Assembly: GCA_964440955.1 (NCBI GenBank)
Contig: CAYTTP010000002.1
Coordinates: forward strand, 18,372 to 82,371
DNA length: 64,000 nucleotides
Source: an uncultured Candidatus Saccharibacteria bacterium
Lineage (GTDB): Bacteria > Patescibacteriota > Minisyncoccia > Phycocordibacterales > WO2-35-19
Reading direction: 5' to 3'
Below are positions 2,737 to 60,123 of the stretch, piece by piece. Each line of letters starts with the position of its first letter. Within the stretch, counting starts at the first letter, position 1. The position numbers and the translations under genes are program-made. The notes beneath the pieces are model-generated. The model did no database searches. It was not told where the DNA came from and was given only the letters and a program-made list of their open reading frames with translations.

Positions 2737-3936
2737 TTAGAATGGGTTTTTGGCCCCACGGATTTCAAAGTGAAGATGAATACCAGTTGCTTTACCGGTC
2801 GAACCCATAAGCGCGATCACATCGCCCTTTTGAACTTTGTCGCCGACCGAAACCTTGTTTTGGTTATTGTGAGCATAAAGAGTTTGGGTGCCATTGTCAT
2901 GTTTTATAACAATATAATTACCATAACCACCATTCCAGCTACCACTACGACTTACTATAACCTCTCCGGAAGCGGCTGCAAAAATAGGGGTATTTAGAGC
3001 GGCTGCCAAGTCAACGCCATTATAACCATGTATACCTTGAGTCCTTTTACCTACAGCAACAGGCCTCATATAATAACTATTTGATTCAATTGAAGCTTCG
3101 ACATAAACACCTGCAGAGGTTTGACTTACCGATGGCGAAGCTTCGCCATCGGGAATAATGATGGTAGTACCGACTGCAAGGGACCCACTCTCAATAAGAT
3201 TGTAGTTTTTTATATCTTCAATATCTGCTTTATACTCCTTAGCTATCGAGGAGAGGGTATCGCCATTTTTAACCGTGTAAGAGATACCGGAAATAGGTAA
3301 GATAACCAGAACTTCTCCCTCCCTTAAGGTATTTGACGATAGGTCATTGCTCCACTTTATGGTATTGACCGTAACTCCAAACATTTCGGCTATTTGAGAG
3401 AGAGTGTCGCCTTTGTGAACAACGTAAGTGCTAATTTGATCGTTTTCAGGTTTGCGCTCGATGATATTTTTTTTGCTGGACACGCCTTTTTCTTCAGCAA
3501 GAAGAGCATTGTCTTCTATTTTTATTTCAGTAGAAATTTTGCTTGGCAGGGAAGCTGCGCTCAAAAGCGCCATACTCTCAAGAGAAGATGTTTTGACAGA
3601 TTCAGCGGCATGTAATGGTCCAAACATACCGTTTATGGTGAGCGAAATCGAACCAGAGAGCGCCCCTATCAGACCAGCTGAAACCGATATTGGCAATAGC
3701 AACACTAACAAAACGAGACCTACTCTTTGGAGTGAGCTCTTTTGCATACCTCGAACCCTGAGTCTGATTTTCCTTAAAAAATAAGGGGGTTTTGACTGAC
3801 CAAAACTGAATAAGGGTAAAATAGCTTTATGGTTAATGGTAATTCCGACTTTCTGCCATTTAATGGCTCTGTAAAGCCATATTTCTGGTGGTCGGTATTT
3901 TTTGGGAACAAGAGTAATTATAACTTTTTGGAGCAC
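2737..3936 (-). CDS. Membrane-anchored peptidoglycan hydrolase: two LysM repeats plus a C-terminal M23 peptidase domain
   Basis: Two LysM motifs (YVVHKGDTLSQIA; YTVKNGDTLSSIA) and an M23 Zn motif (GVDLAA...HLHFEI). Confidence 0.85.
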   Translation of the reverse strand: MLQKVIITLVPKKYRPPEIWLYRAIKWQKVGITINHKAILPLFSFGQSKPPYFLRKIRLRVRGMQKSSLQRVGLVLLVLLLPISVSAGLIGALSGSISLTINGMFGPLHAAESVKTSSLESMALLSAASLPSKISTEIKIEDNALLAEEKGVSSKKNIIERKPENDQISTYVVHKGDTLSQIAEMFGVTVNTIKWSNDLSSNTLREGEVLVILPISGISYTVKNGDTLSSIAKEYKADIEDIKNYNLIESGSLAVGTTIIIPDGEASPSVSQTSAGVYVEASIESNSYYMRPVAVGKRTQGIHGYNGVDLAAALNTPIFAAASGEVIVSRSGSWNGGYGNYIVIKHDNGTQTLYAHNNQNKVSVGDKVQKGDVIALMGSTGKATGIHLHFEIRGAKNPF

Positions 3937-26784: not shown

Positions 26785-26970
26785 CTACTCACTATCTCCT
26801 TCTACATCTTCCTCCCCCTCTTCTTCATCATCACTTTCTACTCCTTCTACATCCCCCTCCTCAAGATCATCTTCGGTTTCTGGTAAGTTTATAACCTCTT
26901 TCTCATCGTCTTGCATAGAATATTTATTATATTTTTTAATTCCGTTTGAACGGTGAATACTTTTTAACAT
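26785..26970 (-). CDS. Small highly acidic hypothetical protein
   Basis: 61-aa ORF with a D/E-rich tail; coding status uncertain. Confidence 0.2.
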   Translation of the reverse strand: MLKSIHRSNGIKKYNKYSMQDDEKEVINLPETEDDLEEGDVEGVESDDEEEGEEDVEGDSE

Positions 26971-28072: not shown

Positions 28073-29056
28073 TTATTGGTTATCGATACCTATATGTTTG
28101 AAGCCATGCTTGGTTAGTACTCGTCCACGCGGGGTTCGCTCCAAAAATCCGATTTGCAAGAGGTATGGTTCATTAAATTCTTCAATAGTCGCTTCTTCTT
28201 CGGAGAGGGAAGCGGCAATAGTGTTGAGGCCAACCGGTCCGCCTTTAAATTTGTTGGCGATAGTCATTAGGATGTCGCGGTCAGAAGAGTTTAGTCCGAG
28301 CTTGTCTATACCTAAAAGGTCGAAAGCTTCCTCAACCACCCCTTTTGTTATATCACTTTTTTTCATTTGGGCGTAGTCGCGGGCTCTTTTGAGCAGATAG
28401 TTTGCGGTGCGGGGTGTAAAGCGACTCCTTTTTGCAATTGAAGTCACCGCTTCTTCTTCCACTCTTACTCCCAAAAGCTTGGAAGAGCGCTCTACAATGT
28501 CGCTTATTTCATCTTCTGAATAAAACTCGAGCTTGAAAACCCCACCCGAAAATCGTGAGCGAAGTGGAGACGAAATCATTGCGAGCCGAGTGGTCGCTCC
28601 GATTAAAGTAAATGGTGGCAGCTCAAGCTGGATCGTGCGTGCCGATGGTCCTTTGCCAATAATTATATCAAGAGAGCGCGCCTCCATGGCTGGGTAGAGT
28701 ACCTCTTCAATTGATTTGTTTAAGCGGTGGATCTCGTCGATAAAAAGAATATCACCAGGTGATAAGTTGGTGAGGATAGAGGCTAGGTCACCAACCTTTT
28801 CGATTGCCGGACCTGATGTGGAGCGCATTTGACTACCGGTTTCTTTGGCTATGAGGTGAGCAAGGGTGGTTTTGCCAAGTCCGGGTGGACCATAAAATAA
28901 AATATGTTCGGCTGGGTGCGATCGTTCGCGTGCCGCGCCCAAGAGTATTTGTAAATTTTTTTTGATTGTTTTTTGGCCAATATAATCATTCCATTCCGAA
29001 GGTCGGAGAGTTTGGTCCAAAAAATGAATATCTTCCGGGTTTTCATTGTTAACCAT
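28073..29056 (-). CDS. ruvB: Holliday junction branch-migration ATPase RuvB
   Basis: GPPGLGKTTLA Walker A; sensor motifs; ruvC-yebC-ruvB arrangement. Confidence 0.9.
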   Translation of the reverse strand: MVNNENPEDIHFLDQTLRPSEWNDYIGQKTIKKNLQILLGAARERSHPAEHILFYGPPGLGKTTLAHLIAKETGSQMRSTSGPAIEKVGDLASILTNLSPGDILFIDEIHRLNKSIEEVLYPAMEARSLDIIIGKGPSARTIQLELPPFTLIGATTRLAMISSPLRSRFSGGVFKLEFYSEDEISDIVERSSKLLGVRVEEEAVTSIAKRSRFTPRTANYLLKRARDYAQMKKSDITKGVVEEAFDLLGIDKLGLNSSDRDILMTIANKFKGGPVGLNTIAASLSEEEATIEEFNEPYLLQIGFLERTPRGRVLTKHGFKHIGIDNQ

Positions 29057-29095
29057 ATATAGTATAGTAGTTCATGCTGGCCTAAATGGGGAGTA

Positions 29096-29124
29096 TTGAC
29101 ATATTTTTTTAAATATGATATACT
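29096..29124 (+). promoter_or_regulatory. Sigma70-like promoter (TTGACA, 17-nt spacer, TATACT) facing into the ruvB-pilB spacer
   Basis: Consensus -35 hexamer, 17-nt spacer, near-consensus -10 hexamer. Confidence 0.4.
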
Positions 29125-29130
29125 TCGCGA

Positions 29131-29335
29131 GTAACAGTATTTTTACGTTGAAAACATTGGGGATAGAAATCTCTAAGCGTCGGTCGCTTTATGCGGTTTT
29201 GACATTAAATCAAGGAAGTGCCGGTACCATTCTTCACGGGACGGTTCGCTAGCGCTTTCCTCAGAATAATGTTTTGCTTTGGATATAAATATTCAAAGTG
29301 TCGCTTAGAGATTTCTGTCTCCAATTTTTGTTTAT
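29131..29335 (+). ncRNA. Candidate structured small RNA of about 200 nt, function unknown
   Basis: Sits downstream of the promoter. A 20-nt arm GATAGAAATCTCTAAGCGTCG (29162-29182) pairs with TGTCGCTTAGAGATTTCTGTC (29299-29319) to close a roughly 115-nt interior, followed by a TTTTTGTTT tract. No ORF inside. Confidence 0.3.
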
Positions 29336-29397
29336 CCCTCAACCTGTTTTTCATTATTCATAAAAGGGAATCCCAGGCAATTTTTTTTGTGTATAAC

Positions 29398-31074
29398 TTA
29401 TTCAAGATCGATAACTCGGCCAAGTTCGTCAAGGGAAGTGAGACCGCGGCAAACTTTGAGCACACCATCTTGTTGCATATTTAAAAGGTTTTGACTCTCG
29501 GCGGCTTTGTTTATTTCTCGTTCGCTTGGGTTTTGGATAACAGCTTTTTCGATTTGTTCATCAGTGAGTATCGCTTCATAAATACCTGTTCGCCCTTTGA
29601 AACCTGTGAAGTTACACTCCTGACATCCTACCGCTTCGGAAATATTTTTTTCATCGAGACCGTTTAAATAGCTTTTGTCTTTGATGCTATCAAGTGTTTT
29701 GTGGATTATTTGCATTTCGTTTTCTGAGAGTGTGGCCTTTTTTTTGCAAACGCTACAAAGGGTGCGTACAAGCCTTTGGGCCATCGCAATGTTGATTGCC
29801 GAAGTTATCACCTTCGGGTTTACTCCAAGATCAATAAGTCGGGGAAAGGTGCCAGCTGCATTGTTGGTGTGTAAGGTGGAGAATACAAGGTGGCCAGTAA
29901 GTGCAGCATTTACTGCAATTTCTGCCGTTTCGTTGTCGCGGATTTCACCAACCATGATCACGTCAGGGTCCTGGCGTAGAGCACTTCGCAGACCTTCCAA
30001 AAAAGTGTAGCCTTTTTCGTCGTCGGTTTGGGTTTGGACTACCCCCTTTAGGTGGTATTCGATAGGGTTTTCGATGGTTATTATTTTTATTTCTGGTGTG
30101 TGAATTTTTTTGAGGAAGGCGTAGAGGGTGGTGGTTTTACCGCTACCAGTAGGACCGGTGTTTAAGATCATACCATTTGGCTTTTTGAGTTCGTGAGTCA
30201 AGATCTCGAGGAGTTTTTTGTCGATTCCCAAAGCTTCGAGTTCTACACTGATTGCAAGTGGGTTTAAAACACGCAATACCACTGATTCGCCATAACCACC
30301 GGGCAATAATGAGGTACGCACCTCTATCTCGCCGTCGGAAAGGCGAATACTAAAGCGACCGTCTTGAGCCTTGTCTTTTACATTTAATTTAACGTTTGAA
30401 ATTAGTTTGATACGGGAGAGGAGGAGAGTGAAGGTTTCCTTATCTATTTCCAAAATATCATTCAATACTCCATCCAATCGGTAGCGCAAGCGAACTGACT
30501 TTTCTTCTGGTTCGAGGTGGATGTCGGAAGCACCGACTGAAATAGCGCCAGCCAATATTATTTCTAAAATGCGCGAAATACGATAGCTCTTTTTTTGGAT
30601 GAGCACTGTCTCAATTGATTTTTTTATATCATCGGTCGTTTTAACTGTTTTGATCAATTCTTGGATTTCTTCGTTTTCGATATCGAGCGCACCACCTTTG
30701 GTTTCCATTGAATAGGACAAATCCTTATAGCGACCCCAGATTTTTTGGAGGCTTTGATGTGAAGCCATATAGAGAGTAGGAACATAGCCCCTGTCTTTAA
30801 GTGATTCGATGAGTTGGATCGTTTTGCTGTTATTGGGAGAGATGATAGCGAGCGATATTTTTTTGTTTATGATATTGAAAGAAGCTACTTCCGCTTCACG
30901 GGCCTCTTGCTCACGAATAACTCTTAAAGCATCAATGTTAACCGGTGTTACCCCAAGGTCTATATATTGAAGTCCGTATTTTTGGGACATCGCTTTCGCG
31001 AGTCCTTCCTCTTCGGCCTCAGCCAAATCGGAGAGTTTTTGTCTTTGCTTGTCTTCGTCGAAGTGAATTACCAT
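29398..31074 (-). CDS. pilB: Type IV pilus assembly ATPase PilB / GspE family
   Basis: N-terminal GSPII_E_N-like domain; Walker A GPTGSGKTTTL; Asp and His boxes. The start is reassigned to MVIHFDE at 31074; the ORF-track extension to 31161 runs through an intergenic palindrome. Confidence 0.85.
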   Translation of the reverse strand: MVIHFDEDKQRQKLSDLAEAEEEGLAKAMSQKYGLQYIDLGVTPVNIDALRVIREQEAREAEVASFNIINKKISLAIISPNNSKTIQLIESLKDRGYVPTLYMASHQSLQKIWGRYKDLSYSMETKGGALDIENEEIQELIKTVKTTDDIKKSIETVLIQKKSYRISRILEIILAGAISVGASDIHLEPEEKSVRLRYRLDGVLNDILEIDKETFTLLLSRIKLISNVKLNVKDKAQDGRFSIRLSDGEIEVRTSLLPGGYGESVVLRVLNPLAISVELEALGIDKKLLEILTHELKKPNGMILNTGPTGSGKTTTLYAFLKKIHTPEIKIITIENPIEYHLKGVVQTQTDDEKGYTFLEGLRSALRQDPDVIMVGEIRDNETAEIAVNAALTGHLVFSTLHTNNAAGTFPRLIDLGVNPKVITSAINIAMAQRLVRTLCSVCKKKATLSENEMQIIHKTLDSIKDKSYLNGLDEKNISEAVGCQECNFTGFKGRTGIYEAILTDEQIEKAVIQNPSEREINKAAESQNLLNMQQDGVLKVCRGLTSLDELGRVIDLE

Positions 31075-31115
31075 AAAAATATTATAGCATGACCTATTTT
31101 CTCCTATGCAGACCT

Positions 31116-31152
31116 TACCCCCCAGCCCCTCTCCTAGAATTAGGAGAGGGGA
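31116..31152. repeat. GC-palindrome family copy A (ACCCCCCAGCCCCTCTCCTAGAATTAGGAGAGGGGAG)
   Basis: Seen directly; shares a leader with copy D and a 23-nt core with copy B. Confidence 0.6.
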
Positions 31153-31160
31153 GTCAGACA

Positions 31161-31189
31161 TTGCTTTTTTATATAAATAATGTATAATG
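31161..31189 (+). promoter_or_regulatory. Promoter TTGCTT-17-TATAAT upstream of the GC-rich lipoprotein gene
   Basis: Spacing counted base by base; followed by the GGAGG ribosome-binding site at 31202 and the ATG at 31216. Confidence 0.45.
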
Positions 31190-31215: not shown

Positions 31216-31701
31216 ATGAACAATAAGTTGTCACTAGCCATGATGGCTGCCATGATTTTTTTGAGTAGCTGTGCGAATCGCACAACTGCTCCTAAGGCGC
31301 CGTCGACACCAAAAACAGTTGACCATGGGAAGTGGGTGGTGAGCTACCCATACCAAGGCAACAACCTGGTTGTGACGATTTACAACCAGACCGACTTTTT
31401 CCTTAAAGTTTTTGTTGATGGGTTTGAGGTTAACTACACTAACAAAAAAAAGAAGGAATCAAAAGAGATGGCTGTTTCGAAGAGAGGCATTGTTCCTCTT
31501 AGCTTTGCTGGTGGATACCAGACCTCTCGCCCTATCAATATCGGGGTGAAGGTGTACTGTGTGTATCCGGCACCGGCCAACTGTCGCGAGGGGCTCATGG
31601 CCCAGCGAATGTTCTTCGCTCCGCCGCGCTGGTCTGGAGGTTTAAACACCTTCTACCAGCAAAAAGATGCTTGGGAAATCACTTCCGGCATTCTGCGCTA
31701 A
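31216..31701 (+). CDS. Putative lipoprotein; anomalously GC-rich gene
   Basis: Lipobox LSSC; the 3' half is about 55% GC in an otherwise roughly 38% GC context. Confidence 0.5.
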   Translation: MNNKLSLAMMAAMIFLSSCANRTTAPKAPSTPKTVDHGKWVVSYPYQGNNLVVTIYNQTDFFLKVFVDGFEVNYTNKKKKESKEMAVSKRGIVPLSFAGGYQTSRPINIGVKVYCVYPAPANCREGLMAQRMFFAPPRWSGGLNTFYQQKDAWEITSGILR

Positions 31702-40417: not shown

Positions 40418-40984
40418 TTAGTTTGATATTTGTTTTAATGCGTACTTGATCCTTTCGTTTGTTCCTTCTATCTCTTTTGGTAATTGTTTTATTGTCTCTT
40501 GTATATCACGTTCTCGATAGCCGAGCGATTTTAATGCTTCAAAAACATCAATGTCTGTTGTTGTTCCGTCTTTTTGGGAGCCTCTTGATACGAGTTTGCC
40601 GTTTAGCTCGATAACTATTTTTTCGGCGGTTTTTTTGCCGATCCCTGAAATAGTAGTGAGTGCTGAAGTGTCGCCGGTGGCTACTGCCTGTTCGATTGCT
40701 TGGACTCCTGCCACTCCCAATATTGCTAGTCCTGATTTTGGTCCGACACCAGAGACAGAGAGCAGGAGCTCAAATATTTTTAACTCTTGCTCGTTTTCAA
40801 AACCATACAGATCGATCGAGTTTTCCCGTACTGCCGTATGCGTCCAAAAATTAGCTTCACTGCCGATTTTAAGATTTTGGCTGGCTTGGATAGTTATATT
40901 GATAACAAAGCCTATACCTCCGCATTTAACGATGGTTTTGGAAGGCAAAATTTCAAATATTGTTCCTGAAATATGACCAAACAT
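40418..40984 (-). CDS. ruvA: Holliday junction branch-migration protein RuvA
   Basis: N-terminal OB domain (MFGHISGTI...VKCGGIGF), HhH motifs GVGPK and GIGKKTA. Confidence 0.85.
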   Translation of the reverse strand: MFGHISGTIFEILPSKTIVKCGGIGFVINITIQASQNLKIGSEANFWTHTAVRENSIDLYGFENEQELKIFELLLSVSGVGPKSGLAILGVAGVQAIEQAVATGDTSALTTISGIGKKTAEKIVIELNGKLVSRGSQKDGTTTDIDVFEALKSLGYRERDIQETIKQLPKEIEGTNERIKYALKQISN

Positions 40985-41124
40985 ATTAGTAAGTATATAG
41001 CATTAGTCAGCTAGTTAAAATTTGCATTATTTTCAATATGATGGTAATCTTAGCTAATTCAATTTTCAGTGTTTAATTTCCACCTCTTCGGTGGATAAAC
41101 TTAATATTAAATTTTAAATCCGGT

Positions 41125-41388
41125 ATGCCAATAACATCATCAGCCAAAAAAGCTCTCCGCTCATCCAAACGTAAGCGAGTTTTCAACTTGAAAAGGAAGG
41201 ACGAAATGAACTTGGTGTCAAAAGAATATAAAAAACTTCTTGTAAGTGGTAAAGAGGCAGAAGCTGCTAAAATGCTTCCAAAGCTTCAGCAAGCGATCGA
41301 CAAAGCAGCTAAACGGGGGATTATCAAAAAGAATACTGCTTCTCGCAAGAAGTCGAGGTTCTCAAAAAAACTTCCTTCGAAGAAATAA
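41125..41388 (+). CDS. rpsT: 30S ribosomal protein S20
   Basis: MPITSSAKKALRSSKRKR N-terminus; 87-aa basic helical protein. Confidence 0.85.
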   Translation: MPITSSAKKALRSSKRKRVFNLKRKDEMNLVSKEYKKLLVSGKEAEAAKMLPKLQQAIDKAAKRGIIKKNTASRKKSRFSKKLPSKK

Positions 41389-41394
41389 TCAAAA

Positions 41395-41425
41395 CAAAAA
41401 ATCCCTCTCGGGATTTTTTGTTTGT
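41395..41425 (+). terminator. Rho-independent terminator of rpsT (AAATCCC-TCTC-GGGATTTTTTG)
   Basis: 7-bp GC-containing stem plus a T6 tract. Confidence 0.7.
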
Positions 41426-41443
41426 AGATAAATATATTTATGA

Positions 41444-41472
41444 AAATCGGGTCGCCTTCTGGCGACCCGATT
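41444..41472 (-). terminator. Rho-independent terminator of the minus-strand histidine phosphatase gene
   Basis: ATCGGGTCGCC-TTCT-GGCGACCCGAT stem with a T-run on the minus strand. Confidence 0.65.
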
Positions 41473-41473
41473 G

Positions 41474-59694: not shown

Positions 59695-59752
59695 GACCTC
59701 ACCCCCAATTAAAAAAATAACTCCCCTAACCCCTCTTATATTAAGAGGGGGA
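59695..59752. repeat. GC-palindrome family copy E (CCTCACCCCC...CCCCTAACCCCTCTTATATTAAGAGGGGG)
   Basis: Its stem and loop are near-identical to those of copy D. Confidence 0.55.
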
Positions 59753-59768
59753 TCGGGCAAAAAATAAA

Positions 59769-59975
59769 ATGAAAAAACAAACATGTTACTTTAAACAAAA
59801 TGGCATCAAGTATGTCGACTATAAGGATGTTGAGCTTTTGAAGAAGTTCGTCAATCCTCACGCTCGCATTATGGGCAAAAGGCGTACTGGTGTCTCGACT
59901 GAATATCAAAAGAAACTTGCCGAAGCAATAAAACGCGCTCGCTTCATGGCCCTCATGCCATACTTGAGTCGGTAA
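59769..59975 (+). CDS. rpsR: 30S ribosomal protein S18
   Basis: C-terminal motif RRTGVS...KKLAEAIKRARFMALMPY. Confidence 0.85.
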   Translation: MKKQTCYFKQNGIKYVDYKDVELLKKFVNPHARIMGKRRTGVSTEYQKKLAEAIKRARFMALMPYLSR

Positions 59976-60012
59976 AGGTAGGCCTATAATTCCTGCGCTC
60001 GATACGAAAAAA

Positions 60013-60052
60013 CCTTCCTAAAATTCGGCCTAAGCCAAATTTTAGGAAGGTC
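60013..60052. terminator. Long hairpin terminator (ACCTTCCTAAAATT...AATTTTAGGAAGGT followed by a T-tract) between rpsR and efp
   Basis: 14-bp perfect stem, 12-nt loop, followed by CTTTTCTT. Confidence 0.65.
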
Positions 60053-60123
60053 TTTTCTTGTCCTCGGCCTAGTGGGCCTGCGGAATCTCGCTTAGGAAAT
60101 TTTAACTACTGGCTCTGCAGATT

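Follow-up and report, generated by a model that had tools for sequence, protein, structure and literature searches.

A candidate structured non-coding RNA gene with its own promoter is conserved beside ruvB across the Paceibacteria

A large part of bacterial diversity belongs to the CPR/Patescibacteria, which have tiny genomes with very few known regulators and of whose non-coding RNAs almost nothing is known. Comparative genomics of bacteria has yielded a number of orphan structured non-coding RNAs, such as the raiA motif RNA and OLE. Other stable RNAs, including those of rRNA operons and the Bacillus subtilis scRNA, are cut from precursors closed by a stem that RNase III processes. The classic substrate of this enzyme is a near-perfect duplex of about two turns, and the centres of such processing stems are usually not conserved in sequence. 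The 6S RNAs are rods of about 200 nucleotides with a relatively unstructured central bubble and arms interrupted by loops and bulges, in which the 5' strand of the bubble serves as the template for product RNAs (PMC8876501).

We analyzed a 64-kb stretch of DNA, referred to here as the window, which its RuvB protein, with named hits that include Candidatus Paceibacterota, Zambryskibacteria and Parcubacteria, places in the CPR class Paceibacteria. The pilB-ruvB gap (29057-29397, 341 nucleotides) lies between two minus-strand genes. An initial annotation had described this gap as anomalously long; it is long but not unique, as other gaps of 250-490 nucleotides are also present in the window. The further statement that no ORF fits inside the gap does not hold, since ORFs of 45 and 49 amino acids do fit. 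Neither has a Pfam match, the longest ORFs across family members differ in strand, length and sequence, and no conserved ORF was found within the RNA element among relatives, so that a coding region was rejected. The features of the locus, in window positions, are the following.

28073-29056, minus strand: ruvB, followed by yebC and ruvC
29096-29124, plus strand: promoter of the RNA gene, with TTGACA at 29096-29101, a 17-nucleotide spacer, TG at 29116-29117 and TATACT at 29119-29124
29125-29156, plus strand: variable 5' leader, with transcription predicted from promoter geometry to start near 29131
29158-29181, plus strand: 5' strand of helix P1, conserved core AAAUCUCUAAGC, pairing with 29300-29323
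29182-29199, plus strand: H1, a short variable hairpin
29201-29273, plus strand: P2 arm, comprising helices, an internal loop, the P2a module and a variable apex
29201-29207 with 29267-29273, plus strand: lower helix of P2
29208-29212 and 29262-29266, plus strand: internal loop of P2, about 6x5 nucleotides in the consensus and the largest internal loop of the fold
29213-29216 (AGGA) with 29258-29261 (UCCU), plus strand: P2a helix
29276-29299, plus strand: H3, a hairpin whose base (CUUU...AAAG) is conserved and whose loop varies
29300-29323, plus strand: 3' strand of P1, conserved core GCUUAGAGAUUU
29325-29333, plus strand: U-run (TTTTTGTTT) directly after P1, as read from the sequence
29398-31161, minus strand: pilB, encoding a PilB-type T2SSE ATPase
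40418-40984, minus strand: ruvA, with RuvA_N, HHH_5 and RuvA_C domains

The core of the element (29157-29324, plus strand, approximately 168 nucleotides) consists of the 24-bp helix P1 closed around a junction with three arms, H1, P2 and H3. The complementary segments at 29162-29182 and 29299-29319, and the U-run after them, are exactly as first described, and the arms prove even longer, as a repeat finder extends them to 28 nucleotides at 89% complementarity (29152-29179 and 29302-29329, with 122 nucleotides between). The 21-mer arm occurs at only these two sites in 64 kb, where none is expected. When folded computationally, the plus strand of 29125-29340 reaches -76.6 kcal/mol, compared to -46.8 +/- 3.9 kcal/mol for shuffled sequences (z = -7.6) and -56.0 kcal/mol for the minus strand of the same region.

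P1 comprises 24 continuous base pairs, with 94.8% of alignment cells paired and compensatory changes in 18 of 23 pairs. Its central 12 bp are conserved in sequence, and it is the outer and inner pairs that covary. Within the junction, H1 shows compensatory changes in five of six pairs and often carries a UUCG-type loop; in four lineages (L018, L019, L021 and L022) it is absent, with only 1-2 nucleotides in its place. All seven pairs of the lower P2 helix covary, whereas the P2a helix is conserved in at least 90% of 23 members. Above P2a lies a 1x2 loop, in which the family consensus has C opposite UA and the window A opposite UU. It is followed by a step that reads UGG/CUG in the family (G-C / G.U / U.G) and CGG/CUA in the window, and in which GG and CU are again conserved in at least 90% of the 23 members. 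The P2 apex varies in length and sequence. H3 has compensatory changes in all ten of its pairs and is missing only from L080. Linkers at the junction are 1-4 nucleotides long, giving a consensus three- or four-way junction. Outside P1, strongly conserved nucleotides cluster solely in the one internal-loop module, P2a, and a scan of all column pairs gave no signal for a pseudoknot, a loop-loop contact or additional long-range pairing.

A RuvB scan of one genome per species returned 80 loci; all family members were located through RuvB. The element is present in 26 of the 26 Paceibacteria loci examined, on the strand opposite to ruvB and just upstream of it, in a set that includes Zambryski-, Nomura-, Kaiser-, Ryan- and Sungbacteria and extends to a RuvB identity of 56%. 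Family cores are 127-181 nucleotides long, always with both ends paired in P1. A model built from five sequences (R1) matches the element in every Paceibacteria locus from L003 to L022, and finds no element at ruvB loci of Chloroflexota, Bacillota and other non-CPR bacteria. A second model from 15 sequences (R2) adds L028 (Sungiibacteriota, 52.9 bits, RuvB identity 63%), L080 (39.9 bits, 56%) and L043 (31.9 bits, 60%), and two further metagenomic relatives score 118-129 bits. The RuvB of one locus, L144, occurs on many contigs. In the contigs closest by RuvB (86% identity), the same pilB-gap-ruvB order is seen with gaps of 409 and 487 nucleotides; the promoter and element are almost invariant relative to the window, unlike the leader and trailer. 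Where the element does differ in these closest relatives, at a few positions, the changes are compensatory, with GUGC/GCGC becoming GUAC/GUAC, and with an H1 that is altered in sequence but retains its stem.

The block of pilB, RNA gene (on the opposite strand), ruvB, yebC and ruvC is syntenic throughout the family, and within it the RNA, encoded opposite to both neighbors, lies tight against ruvB with its promoter beside the ruvB start, at a distance from pilB that ranges from about 60 to 1900 nucleotides. The window holds one copy, recognized as a single hit of the family model, and the arm core is not repeated. The 57 metagenome loci retrieved with a pattern whose internal spacing was incorrect are in essence chance matches, none with ruvB, pilB, yebC or ruvC; two gave weak R1 hits, and the R2 hit of L085 is weak and truncated. 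Its retention throughout a class implies that the RNA must be important to these cells. The family comes with an alignment, a structure and a covariance model, and is easy to find in metagenomes thanks to its fixed position. It also offers a concrete handle on the biology of uncultivated episymbionts.

Covariation is strong in the alignment of 15 species-level sequences. Standard base pairs are formed by 89.2% of cells, compared to 70.3 +/- 1.0% in shuffles and 39-48% when the partners are slid by 1-3 columns. Changes on both sides are found in 47 of 61 pairs, and all six helices receive support. Because this alignment had been fitted to the model, a structure-blind MAFFT alignment of 20 sequences was examined as well, and P1 covaries there also. 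Arm conservation with covariation, on which the proposal of an RNA had been staked, is thus seen in 15-25 relatives. The transcribed strand can be read from the same data: G-U and U-G pairs number 135 versus 21 for A-C and C-A, an excess that identifies the plus strand of the window, and the sense fold is more stable than the antisense fold in 23 of 25 members, by a mean of 10.3 kcal/mol.

The promoter was located exactly by the initial annotation, both in coordinates and in sequence. It has a perfect -35 box and an extended -10, points into the gap on the plus strand, and scores 11 of 12 with the extended -10 TG in a promoter scan. In a regular-expression scan, the combination of TTGACA, a spacer of 16-18 nucleotides and TGnTAnnnT had its sole instance in the 64 kb here, both strands considered. 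All 24 family loci scanned have the same arrangement, with a 16-17-nucleotide spacer, ahead of the element and in its orientation. Together with the covariation, the G-U bias and the lack of a conserved ORF, this supports the original suggestion of a structured small RNA of about 200 nucleotides transcribed from its own plus-strand promoter, with an end at P1 or just beyond it.

Between the promoter and P1, the leader is not conserved in sequence even among the closest relatives, and across the family it spans anything between 9 and 133 nucleotides, counted from the -10 box, whereas the length and register of P1 are fixed. The longer leaders often hold a hairpin followed by a U-run ahead of P1. 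Such terminator- or attenuator-like elements were noted in L005 (2396-2460), L006, L014, L017 and L028, and members with short leaders, the window included, are without them.

At the other end, the U-run at 29325-29333 is likely to mark where the transcript of this genome stops. In about half of the family a U-run comes right after P1 or forms its outer 3' strand; the remaining members have a separate, often bidirectional, hairpin-plus-U terminator 10-60 nucleotides beyond P1. A terminator scan of 28900-29550 found no canonical intrinsic terminator, which we attribute to the fact that P1 encloses 118 nucleotides and not a small loop. There is no consistent U-run on the pilB strand across members. 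Promoter geometry and the U-run after P1 together predict a primary transcript of roughly 200 nucleotides in the window, from about 29131 to 29333. The closest relatives, L003 (~3640-3733) and L004 (~1730-1896), carry an insertion of 90-170 nucleotides right after the 3' strand of P1, corresponding to the point after 29324 in the window; the insertion folds strongly (-22 kcal/mol for the first 70 nucleotides) and takes the place of the window's U-run.

How does this RNA compare with described families? At the gathering threshold, Rfam 15 has no match in a search of the whole window. Permissive searches (E <= 10) of window positions 28950-29500 returned only noise, such as a plant microRNA precursor model that favors long hairpins, with no family of the 6S type, and in a permissive search of 11 diverse relatives the element gave no family match. 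Likewise, the models for SRP RNA, RNase P RNA, tmRNA and 5S rRNA have no match in the window or the 11 relatives. The long arm also lacks the conserved GNRA-capped domain IV of an SRP RNA, as its apex varies in sequence and length.

The initial annotation had called the architecture 6S-like. The likeness lies in size (approximately 170-200 nucleotides), in ends paired in a long terminal helix, and in a stand-alone gene with a strong sigma-70 promoter and a presumably abundant product. It does not extend further: in place of a rod there is a branched junction, the terminal helix is unbroken where that of 6S is bulged, an open central bubble or template strand is lacking, and no match is obtained in either search direction. 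Covariance-model searches with the Rfam 6S models (RF00013 and related) and others yielded nothing in the window or the 11 relatives, and R2, run with filters off, has no hit on Escherichia coli ssrS, its best score in that locus being 3.9 bits at a site elsewhere than ssrS. Both the structure and the reciprocal model searches thus lead us to reject a canonical 6S RNA.

With bacterial Y RNAs (YrlA/Yrn1, the partners of Rsr/Ro60) the element shares a long, sequence-conserved end helix that closes a multi-helix module, but it has neither the tRNA-like T-arm nor a bulged helix of the kind recognized by Ro. No Y-RNA-like Rfam match was found in the window or the 11 relatives, and the gene tables of the examined loci contain no rsr (TROVE-domain) or rtcB gene. 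Precursors with an RNase III stem are similar in having a near-perfect duplex of about two turns that flanks a structured RNA, with variable flanks outside; the element departs from them in the sequence conservation at the center of P1 and in an interior without a match to any rRNA, SRP, RNase P or tmRNA model. A further parallel is with the raiA motif RNA and OLE, which are also lineage-restricted and structured, with their own promoter and terminator, covariation and no known function. Unlike these, the present element is restricted to CPR Paceibacteria, sits at a fixed position beside ruvB, and it matches none of these families in Rfam 15. We would class the RNA as a new family in an established category, that of lineage-specific, highly structured bacterial non-coding RNAs, and no description of it was found in Rfam 15 or in the searchable literature on CPR RNAs.

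Taken as a whole, the explanation that we consider probable is that 29096-29333 (plus strand) holds a true gene for a structured non-coding RNA, transcribed independently, belonging to a Paceibacteria-wide family and producing a stable, trans-acting, protein-binding RNA. Its firmest part, that a real structured RNA gene occupies the plus strand, is very probably correct. The specific picture of a stable RNA that binds protein and acts in trans is offered tentatively, at somewhat less than even confidence. The gene combines the strongest promoter in its neighborhood with a precisely maintained fold and an invariant putative recognition module. The promoter would drive constitutive, high-level expression, and the product would be a stable RNA that acts in trans, most probably within a ribonucleoprotein; for a stable RNA with a closed architecture like that of Y RNAs, a protein-binding role is to be expected. 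P1 would seal both ends, with the variable leader and trailer probably trimmed at P1 in an RNase III-like manner, and the great variation of the leader beside a P1 of fixed length and register fits removal of the flanks at this helix. The invariant P2a module may be the protein-recognition site, and H1, H3 and the P2 apex may act as structural spacers; two of these are dispensable, H1 having been lost in four lineages and H3 in one.

Some observations sit less easily with this explanation. No gene in the examined neighborhoods suggests itself as encoding the partner protein. The sequence conservation in the center of P1, which goes beyond a simple stability or processing stem, may reflect sequence-specific recognition or a constraint from the opposite strand. 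A promoter anchored to ruvB and terminator-like hairpins in the leader, neither of which a plain housekeeping RNA would predict, are possible signs of a link in cis to ruvB or of regulated read-through.

The first alternative takes up this hint and makes the gene a cis regulator of the ruvB-yebC-ruvC operon, through promoter occlusion or competition, head-on interference, or antisense overlap of the two 5' ends; the RNA structure would then mainly serve transcript stability or termination. The RNA gene lies immediately upstream of ruvB in 26 of 26 loci while its distance to pilB ranges so widely, and the position of the promoter is fixed relative to ruvB and not to P1. At 13 of 24 loci, the putative start of ruvB, its first in-frame ATG (ATGTCAAG), overlaps the -35 box CTTGACAT as its reverse complement. 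Furthermore, no consistent ruvB promoter was found outside the region of the RNA gene, and the best candidate for one in L011 and L013 falls within the leader of the RNA, which would make the two transcripts overlap at their 5' ends. Interference or occlusion, however, needs only a promoter, and not a 168-nucleotide junction with six covarying helices and an invariant loop, and pairing that depends on G-U indicates selection on a folded plus-strand RNA. The promoter is 39 nucleotides from the ruvB ATG in the window and as many as 228 elsewhere, so overlap is not universal, and since the whole pilB-ruvB-yebC-ruvC block is syntenic in the clade, adjacency of the RNA to ruvB is by itself weak evidence. 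A cis and a trans role are not mutually exclusive, and we regard the link to ruvB as a serious second role or rival, although an unlikely one. The loci listed for the overlap of the -35 box and the ruvB start codon are L005-L008, L010-L013, L017, L019, L020 and L028, with 29056-29101 as the counterpart in the window.

With the canonical RNA set aside, the element could still be a functional analog of 6S, that is, an abundant RNA that sequesters the sigma-70 holoenzyme and represents a lineage-specific, branched replacement, which we consider doubtful. The size, the ends locked in a long terminal helix and a very strong, constitutive-looking promoter would all suit such a role. The order of stem, hairpin, long internal stem, hairpin and stem is topologically like that of a 6S RNA with hairpins in the bubble strands (PMC8876501), and there is no canonical 6S in the 64-kb window, which is only a fraction of the genome. 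P1 also starts with UCUCUAAG, reminiscent of the 5' end of E. coli 6S (UCUCUGAG), but this is a short resemblance only and gave no model score. Besides the failure of the 6S-type models at E <= 10 and of R2 on ssrS, the geometry is unfavorable: with linkers of 1-4 nucleotides and a largest internal loop of about 6x5, nothing corresponds to an open central bubble. What would be the 5' strand of that bubble is a covarying, stable hairpin, often UUCG-capped, or is reduced to 1-2 nucleotides in the four lineages without H1, leaving no template strand for a product RNA. P1 is uninterrupted, compared to the bulged arms of 6S, and the H3 loop has no conserved -10-like sequence. If the RNA were nevertheless a global regulator of the 6S type or another, it would show that an RNA of another architecture can carry such functions.

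A more speculative and improbable proposal is that the RNA forms the core of a hitherto undescribed, Paceibacteria-specific ribonucleoprotein, in one of two versions. In the first, it would be a housekeeping regulator that substitutes for a function the reduced genomes lack, for example a non-6S control of RNA polymerase or the ribosome. In the second, it would work physically with the DNA-recombination or pilus motors encoded on its flanks, its expression being tied firmly to ruvB by the overlap of promoter and start codon.

We think it very unlikely that the RNA is catalytic or senses a ligand, either as a self-cleaving ribozyme or as a trans-acting aptamer in which the junction and the UA bulge build a compact fold. 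The level of covariation and the conserved nucleotides in the internal loop and junction are typical of ribozymes and riboswitches, and the terminator-like hairpins of the leader could be regulated; but no Rfam ribozyme or riboswitch family matches, there is no covariation for a pseudoknot or loop-loop contact, no downstream gene is available for regulation in cis, and few unpaired nucleotides are conserved.

The remnant of a degenerate MITE or another mobile element, or simply a large (bidirectional) pilB terminator, is suggested by two inverted arms of 24-28 nucleotides around some 120 nucleotides and by the U-run after the second arm, but is effectively refuted by synteny (an orthologous position in 26 genomes across a class), by a conserved and covarying interior and by a consensus promoter that points into the element, as well as, for the mobile element, by a single copy in 64 kb, the absence of a target-site duplication (the flanks GAAAACA and TTTTTGT are not direct repeats) and the lack of matches in phage, plasmid and viral collections, and, for the terminator, by the negative scan, by a P1 that encloses 118 structured and conserved nucleotides, and by the many members with a separate terminator in place of a U-run after P1 and the inconsistent U-runs on the pilB strand.

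Several other identities were considered and rejected. An uptake sequence falls together with the mobile element, the arm core being found only in this one element in 64 kb. The element cannot be an mRNA leader because beyond it the RNA strand runs into the 3' end of the convergent pilB; a riboswitch model match was also not obtained. A mimic of the Holliday junction is unlikely given that the four-way junction is not conserved where H1 or H3 is missing (four lineages and one, respectively). A replacement for ruvA is rejected, since ruvA is present at 40418-40984. This gene lies 11 kb from ruvB and not directly upstream of it, the local cluster being ruvB-yebC-ruvC.

Further features of the neighborhood were noted during the analysis. 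Directly after ruvC, the gene table of each relative contains an ORF of 44-66 amino acids without a Pfam hit (window ~26785-26970, minus strand; L001 5087-5272; L003 6129-6275; L143 5272-5412; L144 5338-5472), which may be a conserved small protein. On the other side, the window has an ORF of 161 amino acids divergent from pilB (31216-31701, plus strand), also without a Pfam match, and an unannotated ORF of 141-210 amino acids is found at the same tsaE-pilB position in L001, L003, L143 and L144. Two other gaps of 430-490 nucleotides (40985-41473 and 59695-60123) have no hit to any RNA family; a hairpin in the first (41389-41425) gives a weak, probably spurious match to the model of the present family (16 bits, E = 0.35). 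Finally, between the 3' end of the RNA and the stop codon of pilB (29343-29397) lies a block that is conserved with L003, L004 and L012. It holds a promoter-like site on the minus strand (TTGCCT, 16 nucleotides, AATAAT, from 29380 to 29353), which would drive antisense transcription across the RNA gene toward ruvB.
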